A stretch of DNA of 64,000 bases from Paraspadella gotoi (lineage: Eukaryota; Animalia; Chaetognatha). Each line of letters starts with the position of its first letter. The stretch's first letter is position 1. The notes under the pieces are model-generated. The model searched no databases. It had not been told where the DNA came from and saw nothing but the letters and a program-made list of their open reading frames with translations. Shown here in pieces: positions 36,291 through 56,378 of the stretch. Position numbers and translations under genes: made by a program. Location: contig CM119267.1 of the NCBI GenBank assembly GCA_051294375.1, positions 22,135,486-22,199,485 on the forward strand. The letters are read 5' to 3'.

Positions 36291-37515
36291 TAGAGGTAGC
36301 CCCACTCAATGGGGTGAGTCAAAAATTTAGAATGATTACATGCTCAAACGAAAATTTATACATTTTGAAGTATACTTTCAATGGACAAAACATTTCTTAT
36401 GTGGCTCTATACCCAAATAATTATTTTTTTAATATTTATTTATAAATAGGAAAGGCTAAAATTTTTTTAAATAATTTTTAAATTTTAAGACCAGATTCAG
36501 ATAGCTCATAAAAAGTTGTCTACACAAAGTATAATTCTTTTTTAAATATTTTCATGATAAGCGAGTCAAAAATAAGAAAAACTGTAAAAAATCATCATCA
36601 TCATCATCTTTCGATGATTTTATCAGTTTTTTTATATTTTCACATAGAAAACGTAAGAATTTGTAAAAGCTGTAATTATATTTCTTGTTTAACTTTTTAT
36701 GCTCTATAAGAATCAATCAAAAAATTTTAAGATTTCAAAAAAAAAATTTTACTTTGCTAATAGTCGAAATTTTATATTATCTCTGGAGCTGGTCCCTATC
36801 AACAGTCAACTTAAACAACGGGCATGGCCATAGCCGATTAAATTTAAAAGCTAATGTATACAGCGTAAAAATAATAAATCGAAATTTTTTTTTAAAAAAA
36901 TGCATTCATTTAATAAATAAGATATCTTTCCCCTGACTTTGGTGGTTTAAGGCCTCCATCTTTCTGACAAGATAATGACATAGCAGGTCCCTGCAAGCTT
37001 TCAATCAAGACTCTCACGTTTATTTACTCCCAGAGTACCTGGCTTCCCTATCAATAAAGTGGTATAATATTTCAAAGAATGTTTCAATTGTATGAAAATT
37101 ATATTACTATATAAAGAAATGTGGCGACATTTTTTTAAATGGATTCTGATAGATCACAAAATATAATTACAGTTTTTAAAAATGTAAAAAAAATGATAAA
37201 ATCATTGAACGATGATGATGATGATAATTTTCACAGTTATTTTTGACTCACTTATCATAAAAATATTTTAAAAAGAATTATACTTTGTGCAGACATCTTT
37301 TTATAAGCTATCTGAATCTGGTCTTAAAATTAAAAATTTCTCAAAAAAATTTTTACCCTTTTCTATCTTTAAATAAAAAATAATTACTAGGGTATTGAGC
37401 CATGTAAAAAATTTTTCGTTCATTGAAAGTAAATTTAAAAAATGTATAAATTTTCGTTTGAACCTGTACACGCTCGAAATTTTTGACTCACCCCATTGAG
37501 TGCGGGCTACCCCTA
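36291..37515. mobile_element. Non-autonomous DNA transposon / foldback-type element with long terminal inverted repeats, bounded by TA
   Basis: Left end TAGAGGTAGCCCCACTCAATGGGGTGAGTCAAAAATTT matches the reverse complement of the right end AAATTTTTGACTCACCCCATTGAGTGCGGGCTACCCCTA. The arms stay alignable for about 350 bp (AAGACCAGATTCAGATAGCT / AGCTATCTGAATCTGGTCTT; (CAT)n / (ATG)n). No transposase ORF. Confidence 0.85.
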
Positions 37516-37516
37516 T

Positions 37517-37894
37517 TCAGAGTAATGCAATTCGCGTAGGCGTCCTGCATGCTTTTCTTATATATTTAACAAACATTGTGTTCATCTTGGATCTAATGTA
37601 GGGCTTTATACTACCATATTGACCAAAATTCTTGGTTTTTAATCTTTTTTTATTTGTAATAGATAAATTAGGTAATTTTGACCAAAATTCTTCGAATATT
37701 TTACCAAAAAATGGACGATGAACACGACTCTCATGGATTTCTGATGGAAAATAGCGACTCATGTGTTTTGCATAGTCGTGAACGAGAGAACTTAAAAGTT
37801 TCAAAGTGCAAGAGTTCTCTTTGTAAAAAGAGTCCGGAGAGCATTCAATTAAGGTAGCAGCTTTGAGATTTTCTTGAAAGAAATCAATGATGAC
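37517..37894 (-). CDS. Alternative terminal exon E
   Basis: TAAG|GTC: VIIDFFQENLKAATLIEC...KLLSSLVHDYAKHMSRYFP...KPYIRSKMNTMFVKYIRKA*. Confidence 0.8.
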   Translation of the reverse strand, partial: VIIDFFQENLKAATLIECSPDSFYKENSCTLKLLSSLVHDYAKHMSRYFPSEIHESRVHRPFFGKIFEEFWSKLPNLSITNKKRLKTKNFGQYGSIKPYIRSKMNTMFVKYIRKACRTPTRIALL

Positions 37895-40800
37895 CTTATA
37901 AAGAAAAAAAATTCATAAAAATGATAACTAGTAATGGTCTTAAATTTTCAATCCTCCAATTATTTCTAATAAACTTAAAAAGCTTATAAAAGATAGTAAT
38001 AAAAAATGAAATAAAAATAAATAAAAAACTATTTTCGTGAGGTAAATTAATTATATGTCTACGCTTGACGACCCAAATTACCCTAAAAGACCAATACTAT
38101 ATCATTCATTAGTCGGCTCAAGACTTTTCTGGGCTTTTTTTATGAATTTTAAGAATAAAGTACTCATAGTTGAGCGCACAGAGGCTTTAAATCGCCCATA
38201 TTTGGCAAATACATGGCCATAGAGCGATTTGTTTTTGTTATAAAGCTGATCCCCTTTTTCTAAATTGTCGATGCTATACCAAAATTTATCAAAAATATAG
38301 CTAAAATATTCTCGGCGCAAAAACTGCCCATTTTGGTTAGTGGGACAATACGTACTCATATGTTTAGCAAAATCATAGAGCAAAGAATTAAGAATTTTTA
38401 GGCTACACGAGGTTTTCTCGAGAAAAGTCGTCGGGTGAACTGTTTTTATTGCCACGGCTTTAGGACTTTCTTCCAGAAATTTGATGATGACCTTGGCAAA
38501 ATAAATTAACTTAAGTATGTCAGTTACCAACAATTGGTCTCCGGCTTAAAATTCTAAAAAACTTTAAAAGGAAATAAAGCATTTATTTTAGGAACGACGA
38601 ATTGTCAAATAATCTCGCAGACTTTTAAAGCAATGTCAAAGAAAAAAAAATTTAAATCATTAACTCAAAGTAAATCAATCTTATAAAGTAAATTTAGATA
38701 TAAATTAATTCAAAATGTTTTCATGAGAAACAAACACTCCAATTTTATCTACGTATCAAGGACTCGAAAAGGGAACTGAATATATTAAACATTATAGTTG
38801 CAAAAGCGTTTTTTCGTAAAGCTGTTGTTATCCTTCTGAGCTCTCCTAAGACTTCTAACAAACATCGTATTCATTTGTGAGCGAACAAATGGTTTAATAT
38901 TACCATAACGACCGAATCTGATGTTACATTTGATTTTATTTGCCTTTTCCAAATTAGGAAATCGTCTCCAGAACTCTTGAAAAATATAACCAAAAAAATG
39001 TCGAGAAGTACTTTTTTCTCGGTCCTTAACTGGGCAAAAGCCACTCATGTACTTCGAGTAATCGTAAACGAGGGAATTTAAAAGCTTTAGATTGAGTGAG
39101 TTCTCATTACAAAATGATTCCGGGTGAGATTCGACAATCGTAGCGGCTTTGAGATTTTCTTGAAAGAAATTGAGGATGACCTTGCAAAACAAAACAAAGG
39201 TTTATTCTTTCATTCTTTCATTCAAACAAAATAGAAAAAACATTTCTTAGTGCTATAAAATTGCGTGATCATCCCAAAAAAACTACATTAAAGAAAAAAC
39301 TTAAGCTCTCAAGGCCTTGGCAAATTGCATTTTGCGTATGAAACCGACGAATCTCGTACTCATCGTGGATCTGACGAACGGCTTCAACGTCCGCTTCGAA
39401 CCGAATGTTTTGTTTGGAATCTTGGCCTTCCGAGATTCCTGGTGCGAACTTTCGAGGTTGGGAAATCTCTCCCAAAACTTGTCGAAAGTGGCGCGAAAAA
39501 ATTCCCGATGACCGAGCCTGCCGTCTCCGTCGAGCGGGCAATAGCCGCTCATGTGTCTCGCAAAGTCGTAAACGAGGGAATTTAAAATCTTTAGGTTACA
39601 AGAGTTTTGTTTCAAGAAAGAGTCCGGAGGGCACTGAACAAGTGCCACGGCCTTGGGATTTTGTTGTAGAAAATTGAGGACGACCTTGTTGAAACAATTG
39701 TGGGGGGGAAAGAAAATTACAGGCTAGGAAAAAAATTATGCAAGTTTAAAAGTACCATCTAAGCAAAAAGTATATCACATTTTTAGTGGTGGTAATCTAC
39801 TCAAAAACTTTTTTGATTTTAAAAAAATATTTTAGAATTTACATTAATTTTTTTGCAGCTTAAATTATTTAATAATTATAGGTATAAAAAGATCGCTACC
39901 TCAATTAAAACATGGCAAAAAATTACATTCAGTTTTCCATCATTCTTAATACTAATTTATTTGATTATATTTCGAATTAAGTTTTTTTTTTAACTTTGGC
40001 TATTCCAAAAGCAATAGTCAAAACCGAAAAAAACCCAAATATTAAACATTGTATTTAAATTTTATATATTTTTTATTAAATAAATAAAACTTTTTAACAA
40101 TTATGTCATATACTTTTCGCCTAGATAGTATATATATTATGGCCAACATATATTTTTTTAATCATCACTGCGCTCCCCTCGTCCTTTTGCTTTTCTTATA
40201 AACCCCACGAACATGGTGCTCATGGTGGACCTCGCGTATGGCTTCAAGAATTTTTTCTGCCCGAACAACTTATCGATATTTTGCTTTAACGACTCCTGAT
40301 GAGCGAGCTCGAGATTATCAAAGTTGGACCAAAACTTGTCGAAAATGATTCGAAAAAAGTCGCGGTGGCAATGTCGGCCGTTCTTGTCGACTGGACAATA
40401 TTCGCTCATGACTCTGGCAAAGTCGTACAGGAGCGAATTCAGGATTTTGATGGCGTAAGAGTCTTTCTTCAAAAAAGAATCCGCGGCACATTGAACTAAG
40501 GCCTCGGCTTTGGAATTTTCTCGTAGAAAATTGAGGATGACCTTTATTAGGAAAATTATGAACTAGTAAAGGGAAAAAAAATTCTTACATTCGAATTCAA
40601 CGGCCGGAGACCACTTGGGGGGAAAAAACCTGCCCTTTTTTCCTCATGATAAAAAAACTATCCCCCTCAGTGACTCAGTCAAAAACATGAAACGAACAAC
40701 CCCTATCCAGAGTATCCACACACTCACCGCGTCGTGGGATTCGTCGTATTGCGGCGAGTAATCGAGGGCGGCGACATTGGCGGACATCATCCCCTCCGCA

Positions 40801-41423
40801 TCGTCGCCGCCGCCGTCATCGTCAAGCAGGATGTAGTCATCGACGGAAGGGTCGGCGGCCTCTGCCTTCACCTCCACCGGCTCGTCGGAGGCTACGAGGG
40901 CGGAGTCATAACGCGAGGTTTTGGGCGAAGCGGCGAGGGTGGTCGCATCGGTCGAAGAGCGTTTTCGCGACGCTCGCTTCTCGCCAGTGGAGGATGAGGC
41001 GGGACCAAGAATGGAGGTGGTGGAGATTCCGGGGAAAGAGTATGCGTCGGAATGTCGCGTCGCGAGGTCGACGTCCGGCGCGGCCACGAGGTTTTGGACA
41101 AGGGAGGAAGGGGCGGACGGGTCGATGTCGTAACGCATCTCGTAACCGAGAGATTTGAGGGTTCCGTTGAGGTAAGCCTCGCATAGATGATCGCGGCCGG
41201 CGAATCGTCGACCCTCGGATGTTTCCAGAAGAATGAACAATTGGCCGTCTGTTAGGGGGAAAAAAAGGAGACGGAAAGAGATGAAGGAAACGAGAGACTC
41301 AGATGGAGATTTAAACTCACGTGTAAAACTTGCCAACTTCATCGTCAATTCGAAGATAAAATCCATCAAATTCGCATCCAATTTGGCCACCTGATCCACG
41401 AGATCCGAAACGTGGTTCGCCAT
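37517..41423 (-). CDS. Uncharacterised gene: constant exons (41423-41321, 41248-40728, probably 40657-40589) plus five paralogous alternative terminal exons
   Basis: ATG at 41423 with in-frame GT/AG junctions. Downstream lie five homologous ~125-130 codon exons, each starting AAG|GTC in phase 0, with no copy of the constant exons between them. Confidence 0.75.
38102..38491 (-). CDS. Alternative terminal exon D
   Basis: CAAG|GTC: VIIKFLEESPKAVAI...KILNSLLYDFAKHMSTYCP...KASVRSTMSTLFLKFIKKA*. Confidence 0.8.
   Translation of the reverse strand, partial: VIIKFLEESPKAVAIKTVHPTTFLEKTSCSLKILNSLLYDFAKHMSTYCPTNQNGQFLRREYFSYIFDKFWYSIDNLEKGDQLYNKNKSLYGHVFAKYGRFKASVRSTMSTLFLKFIKKAQKSLEPTNE
38785..39180 (-). 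CDS. Alternative terminal exon C
   Basis: CAAG|GTC: VILNFFQENLKAATIV...KLLNSLVYDYSKYMSGFCP...KPFVRSQMNTMFVRSLRRA*. Confidence 0.8.
   Translation of the reverse strand, partial: VILNFFQENLKAATIVESHPESFCNENSLNLKLLNSLVYDYSKYMSGFCPVKDREKSTSRHFFGYIFQEFWRRFPNLEKANKIKCNIRFGRYGNIKPFVRSQMNTMFVRSLRRAQKDNNSFTKKRFCNYNV
39301..39684 (-). CDS. Alternative terminal exon B
   Basis: CAAG|GTC: VVLNFLQQNPKAVALVQC...KILNSLVYDFARHMSGYCP...KPFVRSTMSTRFVGFIRK*. Confidence 0.8.
   Translation of the reverse strand, partial: VVLNFLQQNPKAVALVQCPPDSFLKQNSCNLKILNSLVYDFARHMSGYCPLDGDGRLGHREFFRATFDKFWERFPNLESSHQESRKAKIPNKTFGSKRTLKPFVRSTMSTRFVGFIRKMQFAKALRA
40158..40541 (-). CDS. Alternative terminal exon A
   Basis: AAAG|GTC: VILNFLRENSKAEALVQC...KILNSLLYDFARVMSEYCP...KPYARSTMSTMFVGFIRKA*. 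Confidence 0.8.
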   Translation of the reverse strand, partial: VILNFLRENSKAEALVQCAADSFLKKDSYAIKILNSLLYDFARVMSEYCPVDKNGRHCHRDFFRIIFDKFWSNFDNLELAHQESLKQNIDKLFGQKKFLKPYARSTMSTMFVGFIRKAKGRGERSDD

Positions 41424-41663
41424 TCTGCTATGGGCGTATTTTATATTTTTTTCTGATAGCGAAATAATCAAATATAATTATAAAACTTAAAATGATCGAA
41501 CAGAGTATCAAAATGAAAATTTTAGGTAAACTTGTAGTGGCGCTCGAATCGAATAATAATCATAATGCAAATTACATTGGGTGCAAATAAAAAATTCATT
41601 TGCTACCCTCGTTAATTAAGGGTCCAGTTTATTTTCTCCATAACCAAAATCACAGTCGTTAGT

Positions 41664-42797
41664 TCATTTGTATCTCAATTCTCCTCCTCGCAAGAACCTT
41701 CGCATACGTACGTTGACGGACGCGGGTTCATCCTGCTGCACAAAGTGCGACGCTCCCTCGACGAATTCTACGCTGCTGTTGCGGACGAGTTTACCCGTCT
41801 GTACGGCCACCTCTCGTTCAAGAAACGCATCCTCCGTTCCCCTAAATTATAAAGGGGGATCAAAATTATAACCACGCGATAGGTAATAGAAATTATGTAA
41901 AAATATTTAGCGAATATCTCACCAAATTATCAATGTTGGAACGTCAATGATTTTCTTCTCTTTCTTCATCCCAACATGAGAGTTGGCCCTATAGTAATTG
42001 ATGGGATGAGTGAATCCGTTCTTTTGAAAATTGTAAATGTAGGCCTCGATGTCTCGACTGGTGAAGACGCCGGGACGACGAATCCCAGACCTCGGATCGC
42101 TGTACAATTTTTTCAGAGATTCGAAATCGAAGGCGGACATGGTGAACTCGGGAAGGAAGGGGCAGTTGAAGAAAAAGATGTACCACGACTTGAAGAGTTG
42201 CGAGGGCTTTTGGAAGAAGAGCTCCATTAATCCTGCAGCCTGAGGTCCGTTGCAGTGGATCATTTTGTCCACAACGTCGGGATACTTTTCGGCCAGCTCC
42301 CAAACCACGGCGCTGCCCCAATCGTGGGCCACGATGGTGGCCGAGCCGTAGCCCAGAGCCGGGATCAGGCTCTTTAGATCTTCGACCAACTGCGACAGGT
42401 CGTAGTTGGCCAACCCATTCGGCTTGTCCGAATCGCCGTAACCGCGCTGATCGATGGCCACCACGCGGTAGTCGCGAGCGAACTCGCGCATCTGGTGGCG
42501 CCACGAGTACCAAAATTCGGGAAACCCGTGAACGAAAAGCATGAGCGGCGTATCGGTCGATCCGGCGGCGACGTAATGAATTCGGACGCCACGGTCGACC
42601 AGGTTGACGTAGTGATGTCCCCATTCGGACTCATCCGTCAAGACAGCGGGGGGGACGTCGCGGCGTGGTTTGGAAAAGGCGGCGATCGGGTGACGCAGGA
42701 TTTTTACCGTGATTTGTAAGAAGACGAGAAAGGAATAAACCATCGTCAAAAAGTATTTTCCGAAAGTCAAAGCTAAGATCCGCAGCGACATTATCAT
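41664..42797 (-). CDS. EPHX4: Epoxide hydrolase 3/4-like alpha/beta hydrolase, 2 exons
   Basis: HGFPEFWYSWRHQ, DQRGYG, nucleophile motif HDWG, KSWY, INYYRA, W/GTEDAFL and ASHFVQQD. Confidence 0.9.
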
Positions 42798-42878
42798 TGA
42801 TTTGGCCGTATGTTGAAACTTAACAGAACTGACCTGAAACAGAAAAATTAATAAAGCAACAGTTTCCTAATAAAATAA

Positions 42879-44539
42879 CTATAGAAGTCTTGAATCCGTC
42901 TCTCGCCACTTAACGACATAATGGTGCTTCTTGGCGACTGTCAACAACGTCCAACTGCAGGTGGACATGACAAAGTCACGAAACTCGCGGAACCGCGGGT
43001 CGGTGACCTTCTGAAAATTGAGTTTGACTGCCCCCTTGGCGATGAGTCTGTCTACCTTGGCGCCGGCCTTGTTTTCCACCCATCCTTCGTCGGCGTTGGG
43101 TCGGCGGGCCACGAGCGTCCGTTGACAATAATGGGTCGACATCACCAATTCCTTTAGATCGGCGACGCCGTCTAAGCGCGCCTCGACGACCCCGGCGCCA
43201 GGGAACGCCGATTCGATCTCCCGCTCGTCGAGAGAGTCAAGGGCGTCCAGGTTAGCTCCGAAGAGGGCTTCGGTGCAACGGAGGGCCGACTCCAAGCCCG
43301 ATTCGCCGTGGAGAAGCTTGACAACCTGAGAGCCGAGCGTCTTTTGCGCCGGTCGATCGGTCGTATCGAGGCGTTTCAGTTCGGCGATATCCGTCTCGGA
43401 GAGGAAGGTCAGGGAGAGAAGAAAGCGTTCGACCTCAGAGTCCCAAACGTTGTAGAAATATTGGTACATTGAGAAAGGAGAGGTCATATCTCGGCTCAGC
43501 CAAAGGGAATGACCGCCTGAGATATTTGTCAAAGATTTATTCATTTGAAAATTTAAACAAGACGTGATGTTTTGGTTTCACAGCTCATCACCCGAAGACT
43601 TTCCAATCTTCTGTCCCGTCATATCTGACGTCAAGATCGGAACAGTGACGCCGAAGAGCGAGTCGTCGTGCAGCTTGTTCACAAGGTGAAGCCCGCTTAG
43701 AATGTTGCCGGTTTGATCGTTACCGCCTAATTGAATCCGGCACCCGTATCGCTCATAGAGATGAAGCCAATCGTAGGATTGGAAAACTAAAAGACGGGGA
43801 CGAGAAATTCTAACAGAATTCTAACTAAAATCTTAAAAGTCCATTAAGAATATAAATTGTGACTTCATACGAACTTTGATAAACAAACTCCGTCAACGAC
43901 ATCCCATCGGTGCTCTCCATCCGGGTTTGGACGCTGCTTCTCCCCAGCAACGCGGCCATTCGAAAGTGACGCCCGTAATCGTGCATAAAGTCAACCAAAT
44001 TGACGTCGCCGTACCACTCCGAGTTGTCCAGTACGATGGCCGGTTTGAGATCAAAGTTTCCGCGCCAAAAGTATTCCTGGTGGTGTCGGAATATGGCGGC
44101 GATGGTCTCCTTGATCTTGGCGGCGTTTTCGAGGGCAACGGACTTCTCGAGGTGCTCTCGCTCTACAGTCCGGTGGGTGGGATCACCGATGAGGGCGGTG
44201 GAGCCGCCGACGAGCGCTATCGGTTGATGACCCAGCCTCTGAAGACGAATGAGGCCGATCAGAGCCAGGAGGTTTCCCACGTGTAGGCTGGGGGCGGTAG
44301 GGTCGAAACCGCAGTAGACGACCTGTTTCGTCGCGAATTAGCGCCATCGTTAACTAATCACTGTTTTCAACCGAGAAACAAAAGAAACTGACCTGAGGCG
44401 AACTTTGTAGCAAATCAGCGAATTCCTTAAAAGTGCCATTGGTCACGTTGAAGCCTCTAGGTTCAAGATTAAATGCGTTTGACAAAAATCTCGCGCTGTT
44501 TTTTGTGAAAAGTTTCAGTTTTAGAGGCCGAAGCCTCAT
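42879..44539 (-). CDS. YARS2: Mitochondrial tyrosyl-tRNA synthetase, 4 exons
   Basis: Basic transit-like N-terminus, VYCGFDPTAPSLHVGN (HIGH-like), FQSYDW, IQLGGNDQTGNI, KIGKS (KMSKS-like) and an S4-like C-terminus. Confidence 0.93.
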
Positions 44540-44765: not shown

Positions 44766-47756
44766 TTAACCATCGTTAACGGCGACCTGAAAAAAGGAAG
44801 GTTCGTCCTTCAGGTCTTCAATTTCCTTCCCGAGCTCGTGAGCTGGCGGCCACTCTTCGATACTGATGACTTTCGGAAATTTGATCTTCTTCGGCCGCCC
44901 ACGAGGACGTTTACCGACGGGAAGATGACCAGTTTTTTTCTCTCCTTCCCCGCCATCGGAGACGCCGACGACCTCGTACCTTTCTATTCCCGACACGACT
45001 AAAGTGACCAACTCCTCAACGGCCTCGACGACGCCAGGGTCGGGACTCTTGGATTTTCTTCCGCGACCCTTGCCTTTTTTCGCTGGGCCTTTCCCCTTTT
45101 TGCTTTGTTGGGCTTTTCGCGCGGGAGCTTTTCCCTTTCCCAACGACCTTTCTCCGGTCGTAGAGCCAAAATCTTCGACGGTGACGATCAAGCCGACTTC
45201 GCCGCCGCTCGTCACGAGTCCCTCTTCCTCGGGGACGTCATCCGCGTTCTGAGCCCGAAATTCCGCGACCGCGCCCCTCTTTTTCGGTGTGGGGATTATT
45301 TCTTCTTCCGATTCATCGCCGTCCTCGTAATCCATGTAAGAACCGGTGCCGTAAAAGTTTTTTCCGCCGGCCTTGGCTTCCCTTTTCCGAGATTCGACCA
45401 ATAGCATGCGCTCCTTAACTGTGCGTTTCAATCCGTCTGAGGCCTCTTTAGAGCAAGGATCCATCGCGGCGGCGCTTCTGCGGCCCCTTTTAGCGACAGG
45501 GCCGCTCCCTCGTCGGCGGCGGGGACGCTTACTCATGGAAGCGACAAAGACAACGGAATCGTCATTTTCTTCCTCTTCTTCGACCTCAACCATGCCGTAG
45601 GGCGCGCGAGGAGAGAGAACGAGTACCTCTTTCCCGTCCTCTACCTCGATCTTGACCTCGGACGGCGACGGCTTCTTACGCCTCTCTGCGTACTTCCTCT
45701 CCATGTTGAAACGATGCGTGAGCACCTTCTCCGAACCCTTCGGAGGATTCCTCACTATGCCCAACGAAATGAACCCGAATTCCCCGCCCTTCATCCGAGT
45801 GGAAAGCTGCTCCTTTCTCTGCGCCTTGACCTGGCAAATGATGCGATCGAGGTTGCGGATGATCGACTGATTCAGCGTCACGTGTGAATTTCCCGACTTT
45901 TGAAGGAACGCAGGGTTGGAGCTCAGATCGAGAAAACTCTGTTCACGCTTGAAAGCGACCGGGGCCGCATCCTTGAGGCCCTTGAGCCTCTTTGCCTTTT
46001 TTCCGTCTTCGGTAAGAACCTTCGACGTCCCGGAGTTCGTCTTTGGGTCTTCCGTGGACAATTTAGCACCGACCCACGAAATGTCGTCGTCGTCGTCCTC
46101 CACAACCTCCTCTTCCATTTCTTCTTCCTCTTCTTCGACAACTTTTGAAGCATCATCGTCGGTTTCTTGGCAAACGTCGTAAATCCTGTTGCATAGGATT
46201 ACGTAATCCTGACCTAATTTGACGCTTGGCGTGTCGTTTCTCGGAGAGGGAGCCAAGATCACGCACTCTGTCTCCGTCGGACGAGACGGCTCTTCCCGCC
46301 TCTTTCTTGATCTCTCGCGGGGAAACCTTTTGGTCAACGTCGGGGGAGGTGGACACTCCATCATGTCGGCCTGTTGCTTTTTATCCAACGAGGGTTTGAG
46401 AGGACGAGGTGCCTCGGGCTTTGTAATGCGAGGCATGCCATGATGCGCCAATAGCGCCAAGTGCTCCGCCGACGCCTCCTCGCCCCGCCGATGGTCGTGG
46501 CTAGAATCCGTGATGGCCAACATAGGCTTCTGCCGCTCGGCCGAGGCGTGGTAGGCGTGATAAATCTGATTGATGTCCATGATTTCCGAGTACAAGGGCT
46601 CGTCCCTTGCATCCTGGAGAGCGGAAGGATCGATGTGCCTTACCAGGACCTGCATGGCTCCGAGGTTATAAAGATTCTGGAGTCGCCCTTTGGAGGAAAT
46701 AAGGCTCTCAGCATGGGAAGGTAGCGAAAATCCCCGGTCACGGACAAAGTTGATAAAGGACTGTGTGGGAAAATCCCCGCTCTGAGGCACAGGGCTGATT
46801 ACCTTTTGATACTCGTCAAAAGATGGAGGGTAGTTGGGGTTGTACTGACCGAGGCCAAAGCCGCCAACGTCGCCGAAATCCGCCGTTCGAGGAATGCAGA
46901 TCTTCGCGCGGTTCTCGTCGATGACATAGTCTATGAAGTCGTGAACGAGCGACTTAAAAGTCTCCTCATTTTCGACGACGGCGTTCCTGAGCGACGTTGG
47001 AAACAATGGTCGGGAAGCTTGCTTGTAAATTTCCAACTGCTTGCTGTTTTCCAAAGAACTAATCAACGGCTGGGCCATGTCAGCAGGGCCCTGGGAAGCG
47101 GAGCGAGGCTCTTCGAATGAAGTGATCAATCGAGGATCCAATATAGTCTTTTGAAAAGGCGGAGGCTGCGGCGGTTGCAGCGGCAAGAGGGGTTGCGGAG
47201 GCTTTACGGGTTCCGCTGGTTGGAGAGGCGAAGGAAGATCGCGTTCTGGCAATATTCGGACCGGTAACCGCAGGCCCGCCTGCTCCTCCTCTGGTTTGGC
47301 TAAGCTGCGCAAAGCCTGCTCCGCGCAGGGACTTGGCGCCGCTTGAAAAACAGGCGCTGGAGTGAACGCGGTCGAGGGTGCCCTCTTTGGAGTTTCGGAC
47401 GCGAACGTACAACGGGCCGCTTCCTCTGACTTGGCGATTGAGTCGGAGCAGGCGGCTTCGTCTCGATGATGCTGCTCGTCCGGGGCGAAAGAAAAATAAA
47501 GATCCGGAATGAAATCGATTTCGGCTTCGGTTCCGTTCGCACCGAGTTCGCCGTCCCCAGGGGGCGATGGCGAAACCGCGCTGGTTCGGTAAAGGGGGCT
47601 GCTCGGGACGGCGGCCGCGGAGACAGCGGAAGCGGCCGTGGCCGCTTCGTCGGATTCTCCATTGAGAGGGAAAATAAATCTGGAATCTGTGGAACCGGAA
47701 AAGGACTGCGCCTGATTAATATAACTGGAATCTGTAATGCCTTCGCTGGTGTCCAT
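44766..47756 (-). CDS. Uncharacterised 996-aa, largely low-complexity protein with a C-terminal AT-hook; intronless CDS
   Basis: Long ORF with exon-like composition and a TTTAG acceptor 2 nt before the ATG. Contains the KRPRGRPKK AT-hook, acidic tracts and basic NLS-like clusters. Confidence 0.8.
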   Translation of the reverse strand: MDTSEGITDSSYINQAQSFSGSTDSRFIFPLNGESDEAATAASAVSAAAVPSSPLYRTSAVSPSPPGDGELGANGTEAEIDFIPDLYFSFAPDEQHHRDEAACSDSIAKSEEAARCTFASETPKRAPSTAFTPAPVFQAAPSPCAEQALRSLAKPEEEQAGLRLPVRILPERDLPSPLQPAEPVKPPQPLLPLQPPQPPPFQKTILDPRLITSFEEPRSASQGPADMAQPLISSLENSKQLEIYKQASRPLFPTSLRNAVVENEETFKSLVHDFIDYVIDENRAKICIPRTADFGDVGGFGLGQYNPNYPPSFDEYQKVISPVPQSGDFPTQSFINFVRDRGFSLPSHAESLISSKGRLQNLYNLGAMQVLVRHIDPSALQDARDEPLYSEIMDINQIYHAYHASAERQKPMLAITDSSHDHRRGEEASAEHLALLAHHGMPRITKPEAPRPLKPSLDKKQQADMMECPPPPTLTKRFPRERSRKRREEPSRPTETECVILAPSPRNDTPSVKLGQDYVILCNRIYDVCQETDDDASKVVEEEEEEMEEEVVEDDDDDISWVGAKLSTEDPKTNSGTSKVLTEDGKKAKRLKGLKDAAPVAFKREQSFLDLSSNPAFLQKSGNSHVTLNQSIIRNLDRIICQVKAQRKEQLSTRMKGGEFGFISLGIVRNPPKGSEKVLTHRFNMERKYAERRKKPSPSEVKIEVEDGKEVLVLSPRAPYGMVEVEEEEENDDSVVFVASMSKRPRRRRGSGPVAKRGRRSAAAMDPCSKEASDGLKRTVKERMLLVESRKREAKAGGKNFYGTGSYMDYEDGDESEEEIIPTPKKRGAVAEFRAQNADDVPEEEGLVTSGGEVGLIVTVEDFGSTTGERSLGKGKAPARKAQQSKKGKGPAKKGKGRGRKSKSPDPGVVEAVEELVTLVVSGIERYEVVGVSDGGEGEKKTGHLPVGKRPRGRPKKIKFPKVISIEEWPPAHELGKEIEDLKDEPSFFQVAVNDG

Positions 47757-48609
47757 AGCTAAACGATATAAATAGTAAAGTAAATATTAATTTATTAATA
47801 CTCCATTGAAGAAAAAACAATTTATCAAGATAAGACATGTTTGTTTATCAATCGATAAATTTCTCTTTGTTAACTTAATTTAATACTTTAATTTTCTGTT
47901 GAATCATCGCCGAAATGTTCACCTTTGATTGTAAGATTTTAGCTGACTTTCTAACAGCTATAGTGACTTTAATGCAAACTTAAAAGTTATTATTTTTTCA
48001 AACCTTCGGGTTTTTTATTGAAACTTCTTTCTAATCAAGTTAAACTAATCATACTTATTGTAAGAGATGATTATTTAATAATAAGAAAGGTGCTTTTACA
48101 GCTATGCTCATTGAACTGCAATTTCCACCTCAGAATATCGTTGATCATTATCATTTGGCAAAATTAACAAACTACCCTATGGACCTGCAAGAATTATCTA
48201 AGAAAATTTTGGGCGAAAATTTGTGCGAGAGATCTCTACATTCTCCTAGAGAAAAAACGACTTTCTATTATTACAAAAAATCATTTGGTCATTCGTCACC
48301 AAGTTCTTTATGAGTTTGCGATCACAAATTTCAACTCTCAGGTCTGGTTCGAGTCCAATGAAAAACAAAAAAGTTCTGCTACAGCTCTAAAACAAGAGAA
48401 AGGAAGTGAGTCCGGAATGAAATCTCTATCACTCTAGTTTATATTATTATAATGAAAACCAATGAAATTTATTCTATCTATTCTCTTTATTTTGGTGTTT
48501 GCCCGCCTTTTGGCATCATGGGTTTCTCCAATTTTCTCTTTTATTATAAAAATTTATTTTTCTCCTTTCTGCCTGCCTTTTGGCACGATTGGCAGACAAG
48601 AATAAAACT

Positions 48610-48645
<36 letters not shown>

Positions 48646-50083
48646 CTTATATGCTATTACGTGGACGTAATTTTTCCCACGGTGTGCACGGAATTATTGT
48701 AAAGTTGTACATAATCACCCCAATCAATCTGCTCAAAATGGATTTCGGCATATTACTCTTTTTTGGAACCCCCACGTGCTTTGATGCGAAAATCATTTCC
48801 CCGGCCGCTTGTCCTGGTGCACTATTAGTGGTCTGGACGTCGTCAACTACAATGGCAAGTTCATAGCCTGCCAGCCTTCTCGGCACCATAGGTAAGCTAA
48901 CTTCACATTCGTTTAGAAGTAATTCCTCTTCGATGCTAATTGCAAGTTTAGTATTGTTATTCGCCTTCTCGATCTACTGCGTGGGAATCTTTGCCTAATC
49001 AATTCAAACTCTCTACGTGATTCTTGTTTTGAAATTTTATGAACTTTAGTTAAAACCTTGTGAAAAACGAGGACGTTTTGTTTTCTCGGTGGTTGTGACG
49101 CATGTATGAGATGATTATTTAATATGATCTTAAATGAGATTGATTGATTCAATCTCATTTGCATATTGCAGTATTGAATCTAAATGTGTCTAATTTCATT
49201 TTGGATTTTGGTATTAGTTCTGTTTCATGTTTTTCTAGTAGCTAAATATAGTCTTTAGCAATGTTAATGATTAACATGAGTCAAGTAATATTTTAACTAA
49301 TTAATTAATAATAATACTTTAACATTTTATTACTTAAAGATTTGACTTGCTCATATTTAGTGATTCCTTTATTTGTTCAGAAGTGAAACCATTATTCAGC
49401 TTTGGTTTTGGGGACGCACTCTCTTGTTAGAGTCCATTTCTCCTTATCAGAGCTCAATCAGCATAAGATTAACATCTTAACAGTTAATCACTAATAGTGC
49501 TAAATTGTGTTCAATAAGGTCTAAGACCAATATATATAGAGATAAATAAATAGTGTATAATTGTGTTTCCATTCTCTACTTCAGGCAAAGCTAACTAGCT
49601 ATACACATTAAAGACAGTTATATAGTAAGCGAGCATTCTTCACCGATGCCAAGTCAAGTCAACATATCATCAAGTAAGATATTATGAACACTGAACCTTT
49701 AATACCTAGTTATATGCCTATCTTATCACAGGCAAACATATATCTGGTACATAAACCCCCCTTATATTATCATTTAGCCAGTTAACTAAAAACAACAATT
49801 TCTTAAAACGAAAAATTACAGCTAGTCTAGTCTCGTCTACGTAGTTTCTTACCGTCCACAAATGCCGAGCGCGCTCATAGACAAGAAGCCTCTCGAACTT
49901 GAAGTGACAACGATATCTCGTCGTCAGGAAACTGTCAAAAACGACAAGGTAAAATAAAAATAGTTTCGTGTAATTCTAAACAATCTAATAGTAATAACGA
50001 GAAAATTTAAACATGGAGAGTGATTGCATGATTAAATTTAGACAATTGTTTTTTCTTTCATTCACACACAACTCTTTCCGCTT

Positions 50084-51641: not shown

Positions 51642-52310
51642 TCAATCACCATGAAGTTTTTTCCCCCAAAAAAACATGGTGATGGCTTTTCCCGCGAAGT
51701 ATTCTACGACGAATGCTGTGGCGCAAAAGACGAGGAATATCGCTAAGTCGCCGGCGTTGCGAGCCAGCTTTTCCAGCACCGGGTAGATCCAAACTCTGGA
51801 GGGTCCCAGTCCCAAGTAGAGCACGACGGACAGGTAGGTCAATGCGAAGCCGAAGACGACGCAAATTCCCTTCCGGTTGGAGGGGTAGTCGTGCTCGATG
51901 AGGTAGGCGTCGACAACGGCGAAAACGAAGGGCAGGCTGTGCATCGCGTGGTCGTTCCAAACCGGCATGATCTCACGAATCTCCGGCGTGCTCACAGAGT
52001 CCGGATCGAAGACGGAGAGGCCCCAATAGAGTGTGCACACCAGCAGGCCGAGTGGGAAGAAGAGCGAGGCGTGAAGGAGGTCGACGAGAGACTTGAAGCG
52101 ACGCCGTTTCGACGCCAGATGAATCGAGACGAGGGCGAAGTAAAACACGTCCAACGAGTAGTTCCAAAGGGTCATATACTTAAGCTTTCCAGGAAAACCG
52201 AGAAAAGTCAGGAAGTTGCCGCCGGGAAAGTTAACGTAGACGAGATTATAGTAAAGGTTAAAAAAATGAAAAGCGAAGCCCGCCATGTACAAGTAGCCGA
52301 GTCTCTCCAT
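51642..52310 (-). CDS. AIG1/ADTRP (FAR-17a) family hydrolase, copy 1
   Basis: Multi-TM protein with GKLKYMTLWN (catalytic Thr), NDHAMHS (catalytic His) and WIYPVL. Confidence 0.9.
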   Translation of the reverse strand: MERLGYLYMAGFAFHFFNLYYNLVYVNFPGGNFLTFLGFPGKLKYMTLWNYSLDVFYFALVSIHLASKRRRFKSLVDLLHASLFFPLGLLVCTLYWGLSVFDPDSVSTPEIREIMPVWNDHAMHSLPFVFAVVDAYLIEHDYPSNRKGICVVFGFALTYLSVVLYLGLGPSRVWIYPVLEKLARNAGDLAIFLVFCATAFVVEYFAGKAITMFFWGKKLHGD

Positions 52311-52605
52311 CGTTATTTTGTAACGGAATTTTTATATGAGAATGATCTGAAGAAACCTAAAAAAAGCGCAGAGCCCAAAAAATAAATATTCAGTTAAAAA
52401 TTCACTAAAACGATGCACTATGTTAATAAGAAAATGTTAAAATATAAATACTACTTGTAGTCCTGTACGTTATCAAAAAAGAAACATACTCAACTCAGAA
52501 TTAACAAAGAATGTCATGGCGCTTTCATCACCAGTTCTTACTTTATACGGATTTTAAATGGGTCTGAAATGAAAAGAATTGTTATAACTAGTAACTGACT
52601 GATTA

Positions 52606-52659
52606 TGTTGGACATAAACTCTCGTCGTGATCCGTCGATCTTATTTACCTTTTGTAAAA
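52606..52659. repeat. 54-nt dispersed repeat, copy 1 (second copy at 61173-61226)
   Basis: TGTTGGACATAAACTCTCGTCGTRATCCGTCGATCTTATTTACCTTTTGTAAAA, with one mismatch between the copies. Confidence 0.9.
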
Positions 52660-53494
52660 GTCTTTAAAAATATAAACAATCGATATTTGTTTACAAACAA
52701 TACAGTTCATTGTTATTTTAATGCTTTGTTCAATAATGATTCCATTCGTTACAGATCGCATTAATATTAATTGGCCATCGTCGGAGTTTATACGGTTTAT
52801 TTATGTGGTTGTTTGTTTGTGTGGTTATTGGTTCATTTGATTAGTGGCTCGGCCGAGCTTACCTGAGAGGTTTTTATTTATTGATTCATCACCGATGCTT
52901 GTTTCTGCTTCTCTAGATTTGATCCTTAAAGACTCGATCCTACATGCGTTATAGATACTCTCAGAAGGGTGAGCAACTGACGGAAAACCCCGCTCATCAA
53001 TTATAATTAATATTTGACCATTAAATAAAAATTTATTAAGAACTCGTGCAGGATTTTTTTCACAACTTTTTCTCCCTCTTAATTGATAGACTGTAAGCTC
53101 ATTGAGCTGAAAATATAAATTTTTTCATACTTATTTGTTAATTGAATGTCTCGGAAGAAAAATATTCTCATTAATATACATTAATGTACTTTAATATATT
53201 CTACTTTGTAGTCTTAACCCTCAACAATAACGAATCATAAATAACCTTAATCCCATATCAAATTATCCTCTCCAGTCTCCACCCCTTTCTGTTCAGACTT
53301 TTAAATATATTCAATTTTCAATAAATGACTTCTTTACAAGAATGATGTCTAATATTTAATTAGAAAACTAGGGCAGAAAGTAACTTTTAACCTTGGGTTG
53401 TAAAGATGCTTCCTCTATTTCCAGAAGACAACACAAACATCCCTCTCCCATTACATTATAAAAGATTGTAAAGAACAAATATAAGAAAGAAGGC

Positions 53495-53714
53495 TTTAGG
53501 AGAAAAAACAATTTATTTGTTTTTATCAACGAATTGTATTATTGGTAAGACATGTTTCGACTCTTGAGTTTTAGAGTCTTCATCAGTTAAACTCTAAACT
53601 CTAAAACTCAAGAGTCGAAACATGTCTTACCAATAATACAATTCGTTGATAAAAACAAATAAATTGTTTTTTCTCCTAAACTTCAAAACGCAACGAAATT
53701 GATAGTTTATACAC
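53495..53714. mobile_element. Penelope-like element (PLE) palindromic pLTR fragment with 12-bp target-site duplication
   Basis: Perfect 83-bp inverted arms (53495-53577 / 53598-53680), a 34-nt 3' tail, flanking direct repeat AAGAAAGAAGGC (53483-53494, 53715-53726), and a hammerhead core at the centre. Confidence 0.8.
53546..53589 (-). ncRNA. Minimal type I hammerhead ribozyme motif
   Basis: TAA-CTGATGA-A-GACTC(10-nt loop)GAGTC-GAAA-CATG-TC-TTA: full core, 5-bp stem II, palindromic minimal stem III and a GUC cleavage triplet. Stem I is only about 3 bp. Confidence 0.75.
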
Positions 53715-53943
53715 AAGAAAGAAGGCATAATTTTACTTTCGCCGACTGGGGTTAGTGGGGGTTTAGGGGTGATTTAAGGTTAAATCTAAAATAACAAACG
53801 TTTACATTCATTTTAAATTTAATACAATTTAGTGTAATATAGTAAAACAAATAAGCTTACAATTTTTCAGATATTAATATTAATATACTTTCGCAAAAAT
53901 ATTCATCTAAAATTCATACATTTTTTAAATAATTCTTTTCATT

Positions 53944-54636
53944 TCAGTCCCATTTTAAATCCGTGTACTCTTTTTGCGATATTCTGTTCCGCCAAAAAAA
54001 CCAATTCAAACCTTTACCGATATAATACATAAATAAGAAGGCCAGAAAACAACCAATACAAAATAGAGATAGAGCGGTCAGGTTGCGGGACAGTTTCTCC
54101 AGCACCGGATAAACCCACAAATGTGACGGGCCAAACCCCAGATATATTATCATGATCAAGTAAAGCATGGCGATCCCAGACATCACAGTCAGACCCGTTT
54201 TATCAGAAGGATAGTCATGTTTTATGAGATAAGCGTCAGCAAGAATAAAAACGGCAGGTAGGCTGTGCATGGCGTGGTTATTCCAAGCTGGCTGGATCAT
54301 CCGGATTTGCTTTCTGGTGACTGAATCAGAATCTATTATGGAGAGAACCCAGTAAAGAAAGCACACAAGAAGCCCAAGAGGAATAAAAAGAGAAGCATGG
54401 ATTACATCGATTGCAAATTTCAAGCGTCGCAGATTCATAACCAGGTGGAGAGAGACGAGACCAAAATAAATTACGTCGAGAAAATAGCTCCATAAAGTCA
54501 TGTATTTTAGTTTGCCGGGAAATCCGAGAAAATTTAAAAAGTTTTCGTCGGAAAAGTTGACATAGACAAGATCGTAAGAAAGGTTGAAAAGATGAAATGC
54601 GAAAGCGAAAATGTAGAAACAGGCCAGAATTTCCAT
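53944..54636 (-). CDS. AIG1/ADTRP (FAR-17a) family hydrolase, copy 2
   Basis: GKLKYMTLWS, NNHAMHS and WVYPVL; colinear with copies 1 and 3. Confidence 0.9.
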   Translation of the reverse strand: MEILACFYIFAFAFHLFNLSYDLVYVNFSDENFLNFLGFPGKLKYMTLWSYFLDVIYFGLVSLHLVMNLRRLKFAIDVIHASLFIPLGLLVCFLYWVLSIIDSDSVTRKQIRMIQPAWNNHAMHSLPAVFILADAYLIKHDYPSDKTGLTVMSGIAMLYLIMIIYLGFGPSHLWVYPVLEKLSRNLTALSLFCIGCFLAFLFMYYIGKGLNWFFWRNRISQKEYTDLKWD

Positions 54637-55129
54637 ATTTTAGTTTAGTTTTGGAATGTATGAAAATTTATCTATAAAACTAAGAGCCAGACAAGCGGTA
54701 AACGAAAAATTCCAAAAACCCCAAGCAAAGCGAGTACGCAGTTTATGTCGAGCAAAGATTCTAAAATTTTTTTTTTTTTAATTTAAATTTAATTTAGATA
54801 TATAACTAATGACTCATTAATAGTAATGAGCTTCTTATAAGATTAGAGACTTTATTCTGAAAATTCGTTTTTTTGTTTGTTTTTGTTTTATGAAAGGAAC
54901 TTTGCTAATTATAATTAGAACCGTTAATTATCTTCATTCTGTGTAAATTTTTTGATATGAAGAAGAATCCCGAAAATGCTATGTAACTTCCAAATTCGTA
55001 TTTACGTAACTTTCCATACAAGCACCAAGTTAAAAACGATCACAGATCCGAAACCAGTTAATAAAAAAACTGTGTATAAAAAATTTAAAAATAAATGGAA
55101 ACATAAAAAAGTAATTTGTGCCAAGCAGT

Positions 55130-55813
55130 TTAGTCTTTGATTTTCTGCGAGGTTTTGCGGTGCCAAAAAAACAAGGTAAAACCCTTGCCGGCGTAATACT
55201 CCAAAACGAAGGCTATAAAGCAGCCAATAAAAAATAATGTCAGATCGGTCGCATTACCGGAAAGCTTTTCCAAAACGGGATAAGCCCACAGCTTTGACGG
55301 GCCCAGTCCGAGATACAAAAGGCTGGCGATGTAAAATGAGGCAACTCCGGATACCACAGACAGACCGAAGAAGTCGGAGGGATAATCGTGTTTGACCAAA
55401 AAAGCGTCGGCAACTACAAACGCCACCGGAAGGGTGTGCATCGCGTGGTCGTTCCAAGCCGGTTGGAATCTGCGCCGAATCTCGTAGGTCGAAATGGACT
55501 CGGGATCGACGGCAGAGATTCCCCAGAAGAGCGAACACACCAAAAAGCCGAAAGGGAAAACGAGGGTGGCATGGAGGAGATCGACGAGCCGCTTCAAGCG
55601 AACACGGTTGGACGACAAATGGAGGCAAACCAGACCGAAGTAAATCGTGGCGACGAAATAGTTCCAGTTGGTCAGGTATTTCAATTTTCCGGGGTACCCG
55701 TAAAATGTGAGAAAATTTTCCCCGGGTAAGTTGACGTGAGCGAGATTGTAGTAAAGGTTGTAAGCGTGAAATAAAAATGTGAAGTGATAAAAGGCGGCGA
55801 GAAAGCGATCCAT
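55130..55813 (-). CDS. AIG1/ADTRP (FAR-17a) family hydrolase, copy 3
   Basis: GKLKYLTNWN, NDHAMHT and WAYPVL. Confidence 0.9.
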   Translation of the reverse strand: MDRFLAAFYHFTFLFHAYNLYYNLAHVNLPGENFLTFYGYPGKLKYLTNWNYFVATIYFGLVCLHLSSNRVRLKRLVDLLHATLVFPFGFLVCSLFWGISAVDPESISTYEIRRRFQPAWNDHAMHTLPVAFVVADAFLVKHDYPSDFFGLSVVSGVASFYIASLLYLGLGPSKLWAYPVLEKLSGNATDLTLFFIGCFIAFVLEYYAGKGFTLFFWHRKTSQKIKD

Positions 55814-56378
55814 GACTACAAAAAAATAAGAGAAATGCGGAGTAAAGAAAATTAAGTAGCGCGAATTATATCAGAATGCCGAGATACCGGAATATTCACC
55901 AACAAAAAATAACTCATAGCACCACTTGCGAGCGTGCGTAATAACAAATCACAGAAAATACCTAGAGGTACCACAGTTTTTTAAAATACGCATAATTTAG
56001 GAAATACATAATAAAAAAATATGTAAATGGATGGAATGATTTTAAGTACATTTCAATTAATGTAGACAACTACGTACATATACAGTCTTGTTTAAAAAGT
56101 CCGTTTCCGATACGTATGTAAATCGGTAAAAAAAAAAATTTAAAAAAAAAAACAATTTTTTAATAAAAAAATAAATAATTTTTCTCTAAATTCTTATTTT
56201 TGAGTCACCGCACATCGCAGTGAATGCAACAAAAATCATTAAAAAAAATTCGTAATCTTTTAATAGAAACATATTTAAAAATTGTAAGCTTCATATGTGC
56301 TGAATAAATTTTACACAAATATGAAAAATGGTGTTACCTACATATTTTCACCAAAATTAAAGGCACAAAGGTTAACCA

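Follow-up and report, generated by a model that had tools for sequence, protein, structure and literature searches.

The locus examined here lies on the minus strand of a 64-kb stretch of DNA (the window) and raises the question of whether a single constant N-terminus can be joined to any one of several alternative last exons, and what kind of protein would be made if it can. A preliminary description, based on the letters alone, had proposed five homologous last exons, and these were found at the coordinates it gave (Table 1). With 125-131 codons apiece, all of them are open frames; each follows an AAG/GTC acceptor and ends in its own stop codon. As had been claimed, none carries an ATG at its 5' end, the first Met being codon 45, and all share a V-I/V-L/I start, which reads V-V-L in exon B and V-I-L or V-I-I in the other exons. 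All of the exons lie collinear on a single strand in a stretch of 3.2 kb, with spacers of 120-473 nt between the last exons, and the array as a whole occupies less than 4 kb. The upstream exons are present in one copy in the window, as judged by tblastn, and end in phase 0, the constant part being 624 nt or 208 codons with no stop. Exon 1 aligns to the spliced relatives P0001 and P0004, from which intron 1 is missing; a contig of sequencing run X1 skips this intron as well, with its joint at 41248/41321.

Table 1. Coordinates of the features of the locus in the window
Feature	Position	Strand	Description
Constant coding exon 1	41321..41423	-	103 nt, ATG at 41423; encodes the N module's long amphipathic helix
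Intron 1	41249..41320	-	72 nt, GT..AG, in frame without stop
Constant exon 2	40728..41248	-	521 nt, ends in phase 0; remainder of the MADS-like N module, then disordered linker
Shared donor, GT at 40727, with intron 2 as far as acceptor A	40542..40727	-	186 nt; start of three joints
Last exon A	40158..40541	-	127 codons, isoform of 335 aa; join deduced
Last exon B	39301..39684	-	127 codons, isoform of 335 aa; join direct
Last exon C	38785..39180	-	131 codons, isoform of 339 aa; join deduced
Last exon D	38102..38491	-	129 codons, isoform of 337 aa; join direct
Last exon E	37517..37894	-	125 codons, isoform of 333 aa; join direct
Candidate docking sequence	40603..40613	-	Predicted; 11 nt perfectly complementary to 38535-38545
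Candidate selector sequence	38535..38545	-	Predicted; 43 nt upstream of acceptor D
Donor-like site at 40588	40581..40591	-	8/11 positions equal the lola U1-pairing motif (excerpt of PMC4387717); use not seen

Joining of the last exons to a common donor

The splice evidence consists of contigs from one public run (X1) of one study, whose status as RNA is our guess; junction side lengths were predicted from the k=31 assembly graph and compared with these contigs. The comparison covered positions 37400-42900; two further runs, X2 and X3, come from other organisms, contain hardly any of the locus's sequence words and gave nothing. Three GT..AG joints connect the donor at 40727 directly to exons B, D and E, and their side lengths (29, 24 and 24, respectively) equal the graph predictions. 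At exon A, a contig has its end at 40542 and carries a 15-nt overhang, just the length expected from the graph if exon 2 is joined to A, and at exon C a contig starts at 39181, the predicted merge point, with the junction itself not displayed, so that these two joins to 40727 are deduced to the base from contig ends and not read. At A, C, D and E, contigs start one base ahead of the acceptor, which is expected when the upstream exon ends in CG and not in AG. With three direct and two deduced joins from one donor, the proposal of one constant N-terminus with five alternative paralogous last exons holds. Two donors had been suggested for it, of which 40727 is borne out by three joints and 40588 is not (0 of the 6 joints listed); we rejected 40588 as a productive donor also because the reading frame past 40727 hits a stop before reaching it.

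The five last exons are 40-66% identical at the protein level, with 28 invariant columns. Synonymous differences exceed amino acid-changing ones in all ten exon pairs (pS 0.62-0.79 versus pN 0.21-0.40; in 10/10 the bootstrap interval lies above zero), so that this comparison, which the preliminary description had recommended, points to purifying selection; all five frames are intact, as it had stated, despite a divergence that has saturated the synonymous sites. A clade of the five exons by themselves is unsupported (SH-aLRT 17). Two situations that would have refuted the proposal are at odds with these data: that only A is spliced while B-E are untranscribed or evolve neutrally, given the joints of B, D and E to the common exon and the purifying selection, and that each copy has its own promoter and first exon, given the same joints.

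A family of proteins with the same two domains

A profile search with the last exons returned 82 matches at the 50% cluster level, four of them probably spurious, and both domains occur together in 47 of the 108 collected proteins; the DESHD junction is common to P0001, P0004 and the protein of the window. The domains had been called unfamiliar, and they are indeed unnamed, but they are not unique, being shared by dozens of proteins. The family is absent from Pfam, it goes without a name in the clusters checked, and fold comparison matched nothing. ESM Atlas matches all scored below 0.9, among them a bacterial hypothetical or ROK protein (0.89) and TDP-43_N (0.82). Among 52 proteins with the N-domain, none combined one N-terminus with two different C-domains, although isoforms can be merged by clustering at 50% and 90%, which makes this a weak search, and two scans of metagenome contigs, with 107 and 5 pattern matches, confirmed no related locus. 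Neither the family nor the cassette was found described in the titles and abstract openings of the open-licence literature, where an unnamed family is hard to search for by word.

The constant part: a weak MADS likeness and putative nuclear hallmarks

Searches of the PDB with the N-terminal module gave five matches, and both natural chains among them are SRF (E 0.29 and 0.41). The Pfam model SRF-TF (PF00319) matches five of 30 family members with E 0.11-0.15, over positions 19-44 or 26-44 of its 48, and the best MADS score is 12.5 bits (best E 0.11) against a Pfam gathering cut-off of 26; the window's own protein, P0001 and P0004 gave no SRF-TF match. This weak profile likeness concerns the C-terminal half of helix I and the beta-hairpin, which form the dimer in the MADS box. 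Model positions 1-18, the basic DNA-contacting part of the MADS box, are unmatched: a hydrophobic helix stands here instead, hydrophobic or acidic in the family alignment, and the basic surface sits in the separate C-domain. The monomer model of the module (pLDDT 53) is too low in confidence for a fold search, and a homodimer prediction in which the alignment was not used scored 0.00 and gave no answer. One could speculate, at slightly less than an even chance, that the module would be the dimerisation half of a MADS box after loss of the basic DNA-binding half, in which case the isoforms could pair with each other, as through the BTB domain in mod(mdg4).

The disordered linker has a basic (NLS-like) motif in 33 of 34 family members (shuffles: mean 4.1, maximum 11), psi-K-x-E in 24 (mean 2.4, maximum 8) and an acidic SIM-like motif in 12 (mean 0.1, maximum 2), counts that come from related linkers and from motifs defined after viewing the sequences. 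The three labels, as applied to the linker in exon 2, follow the usual consensus patterns. Nuclear import and SUMO signals would probably be the task of the constant part, and contact with DNA would be made by the variable domain through its basic last helix.

The variable part: a basic helical domain in five versions

The C-domain model is confident and all-helical (pLDDT 88). Its last 40 residues carry a net charge of +4 or more in 87/91 C-domains, and K/R is kept at positions 32, 43 and 104 in 98-100% of them. Comparison with PDB folds by Foldseek reached E 0.83 at best, comparison with viral structures E 0.95, and a wide structure comparison with VIA Z 6.5 (rmsd 4.1 over 98 residues), with no match at 8 or above and no BEN entry among the 50 matches listed; PDB sequence searches with the family alignments A2, A4 and A5 gave chance-level matches only, and Pfam gave none, be it to BEN, MADF or another helical DNA-binding domain. 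Since neither Pfam, nor the names of the clusters checked, nor fold comparison places the family, the C-domain may represent a nucleic-acid-binding fold not yet described. For the complete protein we infer both DNA binding, predicted for this domain, and dimerisation.

The preliminary description had further assumed that the five isoforms differ in specificity. The alignments cast doubt on this, since there is good conservation of the putative contact helix across the five exons, which have K100, R104, S105, M107, T109 and F111 in common, whereas positions 105-113 vary widely in the family as a whole. Differences among the isoforms are probably modest and would lie in the 3' UTRs and in the loop of variable sequence that precedes the last helix, and not in wholly different target motifs. 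The same conservation would also be compatible with isoforms that are nearly redundant biochemically, in which case dosage or a difference in 3' UTRs, and not specificity, would be what maintains the array. We consider this somewhat unlikely, since the exons have diverged to saturation at synonymous sites and are still all intact, and since positions 106, 108 and 113, the loop 80-98 and the net charge (+6 to +13) differ among them.

It is also conceivable that the variable domain binds proteins or RNA and not DNA, and that the isoforms are adaptors. The lack of a match to any DNA-binding fold would be in line with this, and the C-terminus of Mod(mdg4)-67.2 binds Su(Hw), according to the excerpt of PMC13490949. 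The near-invariant Lys/Arg positions and the basic terminal helix in nearly all C-domains argue the other way, and we regard such a role as unlikely.

Choice among the last exons

A single pre-mRNA would quite probably span the array, with the acceptor chosen jointly with the site of 3'-end formation. Contigs of run X1 extend from B, C and D through the spacers into the next exon. Comparable cases are known, in that the excerpt of PMC6191721 describes the tandem 3' cassettes of Drosophila PGRP-LC, CG42235 and Pip as picked in cis from a common donor, with the choice coupled to 3'-end formation, partly via RNA pairing between a docking site and selectors. Those proteins are unrelated to the present one, and only a single selector, that of D, is significant here. 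In an unbiased best-helix test, the best perfect helix, which pairs the candidate docking sequence with this selector, was matched by 3/1000 and 4/1000 shuffles; with the docking stretch fixed after the D helix had been seen, the counts were 0/500 for D, 46/500 for E, 88/500 for C and 188/500 for B. The RNA helix is significant for one of the four distal exons, and whole-intron duplex tests were significant for no exon (21, 7, 23 and 44 of 60 shuffles). Tentatively, and with some inclination against it, we suggest that this 11-bp intron helix would loop out A-C and so help to select D. The AATAAA signals noted previously are indeed present at 40077, 39206 and 38587 (and also at 39961), but as evidence they stay at chance level, with four sites in the four spacers versus 2.06 expected (P=0.14) and none in the spacer between D and E, and we discarded them as an above-chance argument.

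Cis splicing coupled to the choice of the 3' end is likelier than trans-splicing like that in mod(mdg4)/lola, in which the last exons would be transcribed separately or from the other allele, aided by a pseudo-donor in intron 2. The donor-like site at 40588 could be such an element, as a pseudo-donor that binds U1 is used by mod(mdg4) and lola (excerpt of PMC4387717), and the neighbourhood, which looks operon-like, may point to an organism with trans-splicing machinery. Set against this, all exons lie in order on the same strand, with short spacers that contigs cross; the 40588 site has a longest run of 5 matching positions, compared with 9 and 12 bp reported for the fly motifs; and the 3' exons of mod(mdg4) have their own promoters, some on the opposite strand (excerpt of PMC13490949). 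Trans-splicing at this locus is therefore distinctly improbable. A reading in which only A belongs to the gene, and B-E are decaying copies or else cistrons or genes in their own right, each with its own start, is highly improbable and as a sole account already contradicted: the conserved Met at codon 45 of each last exon and the AATAAA 26 and 96 nt upstream of the C and D acceptors, in a spacing that resembles operon cistrons, are outweighed by the direct joints that B, D and E make with the common donor, by contig starts at A, C, D and E where an upstream exon ending in CG would put them, and, for decay, by purifying selection in every pair.

Comparison with known systems and significance

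The variable domains of mod(mdg4) and lola are FLYWCH or C2H2 zinc fingers, and Drosophila broad and fruitless join a constant BTB domain to alternative zinc-finger last exons; the latter two have no domain in common with the present gene. The claim that the locus lacks both domain types was borne out, as no BTB family was matched at E<=1 or E<=5 by exon 2, P0001, P0004 or 30 family members, and the five last exons gave no FLYWCH/C2H2 match in Pfam, have no invariant Cys or His among them and are modelled as all-helical. In the excerpts of PMC13490949 and PMC4387717, mod(mdg4) and lola combine common 5' exons with a single 3' exon out of many, so that nuclear isoforms with differing C-terminal domains result. 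Here, too, the common exons are joined to a 3' exon chosen among several alternatives, although the fly genes make 20-31 isoforms and the present gene has five last exons on one strand within 3.2 kb. The locus can thus be seen, as proposed, as an independent equivalent of these genes, the likeness being convergent because neither BTB nor zinc finger is found here. In human capping protein beta, too, the 3'-terminal exons are homologous, alike in length and frame and provided with multiple poly(A) sites (excerpt of PMC3228551), but here there are five such exons and each is a whole folded domain of ~125 residues. As duplicated 3' cassettes are already known (PGRP-LC, Pip, lola), what is new is the undescribed domain pair.

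On balance, we think it probable that the gene joins a constant N-terminus of 208 residues to any of five tandem, conserved last exons, likely in cis, and that the isoforms are likely nuclear DNA-binding regulators. One could go further and speculate on a transcription factor family of the lineage's own, derived from a split MADS box whose dimer half was kept and combined with a new basic helical DNA-binding fold, in which the strategy of mod(mdg4) and lola was reinvented with five selectable exons, up to 15 homo- and heterodimers of differing specificity, long-range RNA pairing and an operon-like locus; taken as a whole, this seems quite unlikely to us.

Dozens of proteins form the family that is marked by the two domains, and Pfam has no entry for it. 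Most of what is known of genes that combine a constant dimerisation module with a variable, DNA-binding last exon comes from the BTB genes of insects, and a second origin from unrelated domains, if true, would mean that such a layout can arise repeatedly as a solution and is no peculiarity of BTB genes.

Gene structure

The gene is encoded on the minus strand of an animal genome in which, across the window, introns are short and genes densely packed. Pfam identifies two upstream genes, one for an alpha/beta-hydrolase and one for a tyrosyl-tRNA-synthetase-like protein. The two constant exons of the gene total 624 nt and end in phase 0; by tblastn, the window contains no second copy of them, in keeping with the single constant set of the preliminary description. 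That description also placed the five last exons correctly, each opening after AAG/GTC and carrying its own stop. They span 125-131 codons each, with the first Met no earlier than codon 45, and the five predicted isoforms (333-339 residues) are all free of internal stops. Intron 1 (72 nt) is itself in frame and without a stop, so that a transcript retaining it would encode 24 additional residues midway through the N-terminal domain of the constant part (the N module).

Features of the locus and its surroundings (window positions)
Feature	Position	Strand
Constant exon 1	41423-41321	minus
Intron 1	41249-41320	minus
Constant exon 2	41248-40728	minus
Last exon A	40541-40158	minus
Last exon B	39684-39301	minus
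Last exon C	39180-38785	minus
Last exon D	38491-38102	minus
Last exon E	37894-37517	minus
Probable second small mobile element, A-B spacer	39753-40130	
MITE-like element	36291-37515	
Intronless 1006-codon ORF	44766-47786	
Degenerate retroelement-like stretch	48500-49700	
Three tandem membrane-protein paralogues	51642-55870	

The AATAAA sites reported behind the last exons are present, but their number, four in the four spacers versus 2.06 expected (P=0.14), is at chance level, and the D-E spacer has none. Exon B is followed by a single AATAAA, 26 nt ahead of the exon C acceptor (39180-39206), so that cleavage of a B transcript would hit or adjoin the C splice site.

Transcript evidence for the splices

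The junctions were sought in X1, a public sequencing run (one run, one study) of guessed RNA status in which 86% of the sampled words were present, and whose contigs were aligned to 37400-42900 only. Six joints were found. Three are GT..AG skips that lead from donor 40727 directly to B, D and E; the others comprise intron 1, an intron within the hydrolase gene upstream and, in the A-B spacer, a non-canonical skip of 271 nt. That introns are spliced out in both genes speaks for an RNA origin of X1. The first 14 bases of exons A and C are identical, and the junction pieces of these two exons in a 31-mer graph would therefore keep only 16 bases of exon 2. A model of this graph predicted joint sides of 29 (B), 24 (D) and 24 (E), an unaligned overhang of 15 bases for the A contig and a C merge point at 39181, and all five values agree with X1: the A contig (709 long, 694 aligned) ends at 40542 and the C contig begins at 39181. 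The joins of 40727 to A and C are thus deduced from contig ends, the junctions themselves being unread. The other donor that had been proposed, 40588, has to be dropped, as it occurs in none of the six joints and the reading frame hits a stop before it. Contigs also cross the spacers from B, C and D to reach the following exon, a pattern compatible with one pre-mRNA or with long 3' UTRs; contig depths are unsuited to ranking isoforms. We regard it as nearly certain that the five-exon cassette is real.

Selection and history of the last exons

Over 118 aligned codons, pS among the exons was 0.62-0.79 versus a pN of 0.21-0.40, with a pS-pN difference whose bootstrap interval stayed above zero in 10/10 pairs, answering the call for a dN/dS comparison. 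In the four pairs with computable dS, dN/dS was 0.12-0.26; the remaining pairs were saturated. Synonymous saturation together with pS > pN indicates that the duplications are old and that all five copies have been retained. A quick tree of 91 C-domains, the part encoded by the last exons (121 columns; SH-aLRT as the only support measure; built after removal of 11 rows that were near-duplicates or junk, of proteins of at least 700 aa and of pieces <80 aa), places A-E within a 99% group that also contains eight outside proteins. A and B form one pair (92), C and E another (99), and a clade of A-E alone is unsupported (17). To judge from the related protein sequences, the position of the intron before the C-domain looks conserved: P0001 and P0004 have the same DESHD directly ahead of the C-domain, in P0003 the domain's first residues are absent at the intron point, and P0006/P0086 start with a stretch rich in F/L/S that looks like translated intron and ends in K immediately ahead of the domain.

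Protein family and predicted function

Among 1.84 billion representatives, a profile of exons A-E matched 82 proteins at E<=0.001 and 26 at 1e-10; four repetitive sequences among the 82 (P0013, P0065, P0067, P0080) are probably spurious. With near-duplicates counted, the N module occurs in 52 of 108 collected proteins and the C-domain in 100, with both present in 47; the relatives examined combine a single N module with a single C-domain. In the 21 clusters checked, every member is unnamed and without an NCBI/UniRef source, and no Pfam family covers either domain.

The C-domain model is compact, with seven helices (pLDDT 88, pTM 0.82), and structure searches returned no known fold. Lys/Arg is nearly invariant at positions 32, 43 and 104. 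The last 40 residues carry a net charge of at least +4 in 87/91 domains (mean +7.4 vs -1.2 for the remainder), and this basic terminal helix is what a putative DNA-contacting helix would look like. In the linker, which follows the N module in exon 2, we scanned 34 sequences (33 family members and the studied gene, 14 near-duplicates or close orthologues having been dropped from 47) for motifs that we take to be import-like, psi-K-x-E and SIM-like. The basic import-like motif occurs in 33/34 linkers (shuffle mean 4.1), psi-K-x-E in 24/34 (2.4) and the acidic SIM-like motif in 12/34 (0.1), and the studied gene has all three. Since the patterns were written after the sequences had been viewed and the linkers are mutually related, the enrichment is only suggestive of a nuclear/SUMO signal. 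On balance, we lean towards a nuclear DNA-binding regulator. That its isoforms differ clearly in specificity, as originally proposed, seems doubtful: the terminal helix is well conserved across A-E and the loop before it varies in length, so that large differences are not evident.

In a PDB search at E<=10, a profile of 30 N modules matched five sequences: a pair of SRF chains (E 0.29, 0.41) and three apparently designed proteins. The Pfam family matched by the largest number of members was SRF-TF (5/30, E 0.11-0.15; matches spanning model positions 19-44 or 26-44). Neither search is significant and both rest on one common resemblance, which would point to the dimerisation half of a MADS box, the basic half missing. 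A MADS-derived dimer module is a tentative reading, at slightly under even chances.

Choice of the last exon

The simplest route to exon selection would be cis splicing tied to 3'-end choice, a published model for PGRP-LC (PMC6191721), and we consider a cis mechanism quite likely. In a repeat scan, a stretch of intron 2 paired as an inverted repeat with one in the spacer ahead of D, the two forming a perfect 11-bp helix (40613-40603 with 38545-38535) that ends 43 nt before acceptor D. The best helix over the four spacers was equalled by 3/1000 spacer shuffles, 4/1000 intron shuffles and 0/163 overlapping stretches of low GC content from other parts of the window. An 8-bp version precedes exon E by a comparable distance (46/500 shuffles as good), that of C is weak (88/500), B has none (188/500), and no whole-intron duplex test was significant. 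A role of RNA pairing in exon choice is a prediction.

Surroundings in the window

Between 690 and 60716, 17 of 18 recognisable genes lie on the minus strand in an operon-like arrangement; we take them to include Piwi, PKD2, PrimPol, SART3, ASPH, SRP19, AIG1 (three) and ABCB. Stop-to-start gaps upstream of the studied gene are ~80-240 nt, an acceptor-like AG lies within ~50 nt upstream of the seven gene starts examined, and one spliced 8759-nt X1 contig runs from beyond 42900 via the hydrolase gene into the studied gene. Together these suggest polycistronic transcription with leader trans-splicing, one contig being no proof of a single transcript.

The 1.2-kb MITE-like element (terminal inverted repeats of ~350 bp, 83% identity; other copies in X1) begins one or two bases past the exon E stop and so supplies its 3' UTR. 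The probable mobile element in the A-B spacer has 28-bp inverted repeats 322 nt apart, and X1 shows loose ends as well as the 271-nt skip there. The tandem paralogues are intronless and presumably AIG1/ADTRP-like. As judged by eye, the retroelement-like stretch contains an A/T run and separates the SRP19-like gene from the 1006-codon ORF; the latter abounds in acidic and basic tracts, and its predicted product is probably nuclear.

Relation to known systems

In layout, the gene works in the same way as mod(mdg4) and lola (PMC13490949), and the donor-like 40588 is a faint parallel to their U1-binding pseudo-donor (PMC4387717). However, it lacks BTB and zinc finger, as first noted, and its exons lie on one strand only; it is therefore not a member of that group. 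Its splicing architecture is of an already known kind, homologous 3'-terminal exons being a recognised class (PMC3228551). What appears to be new is that this architecture arose independently, in an unnamed family of two-domain proteins whose C-domain has no fold match. This family seems to have diversified through gene duplication, and the studied gene through duplication of its last exon only.
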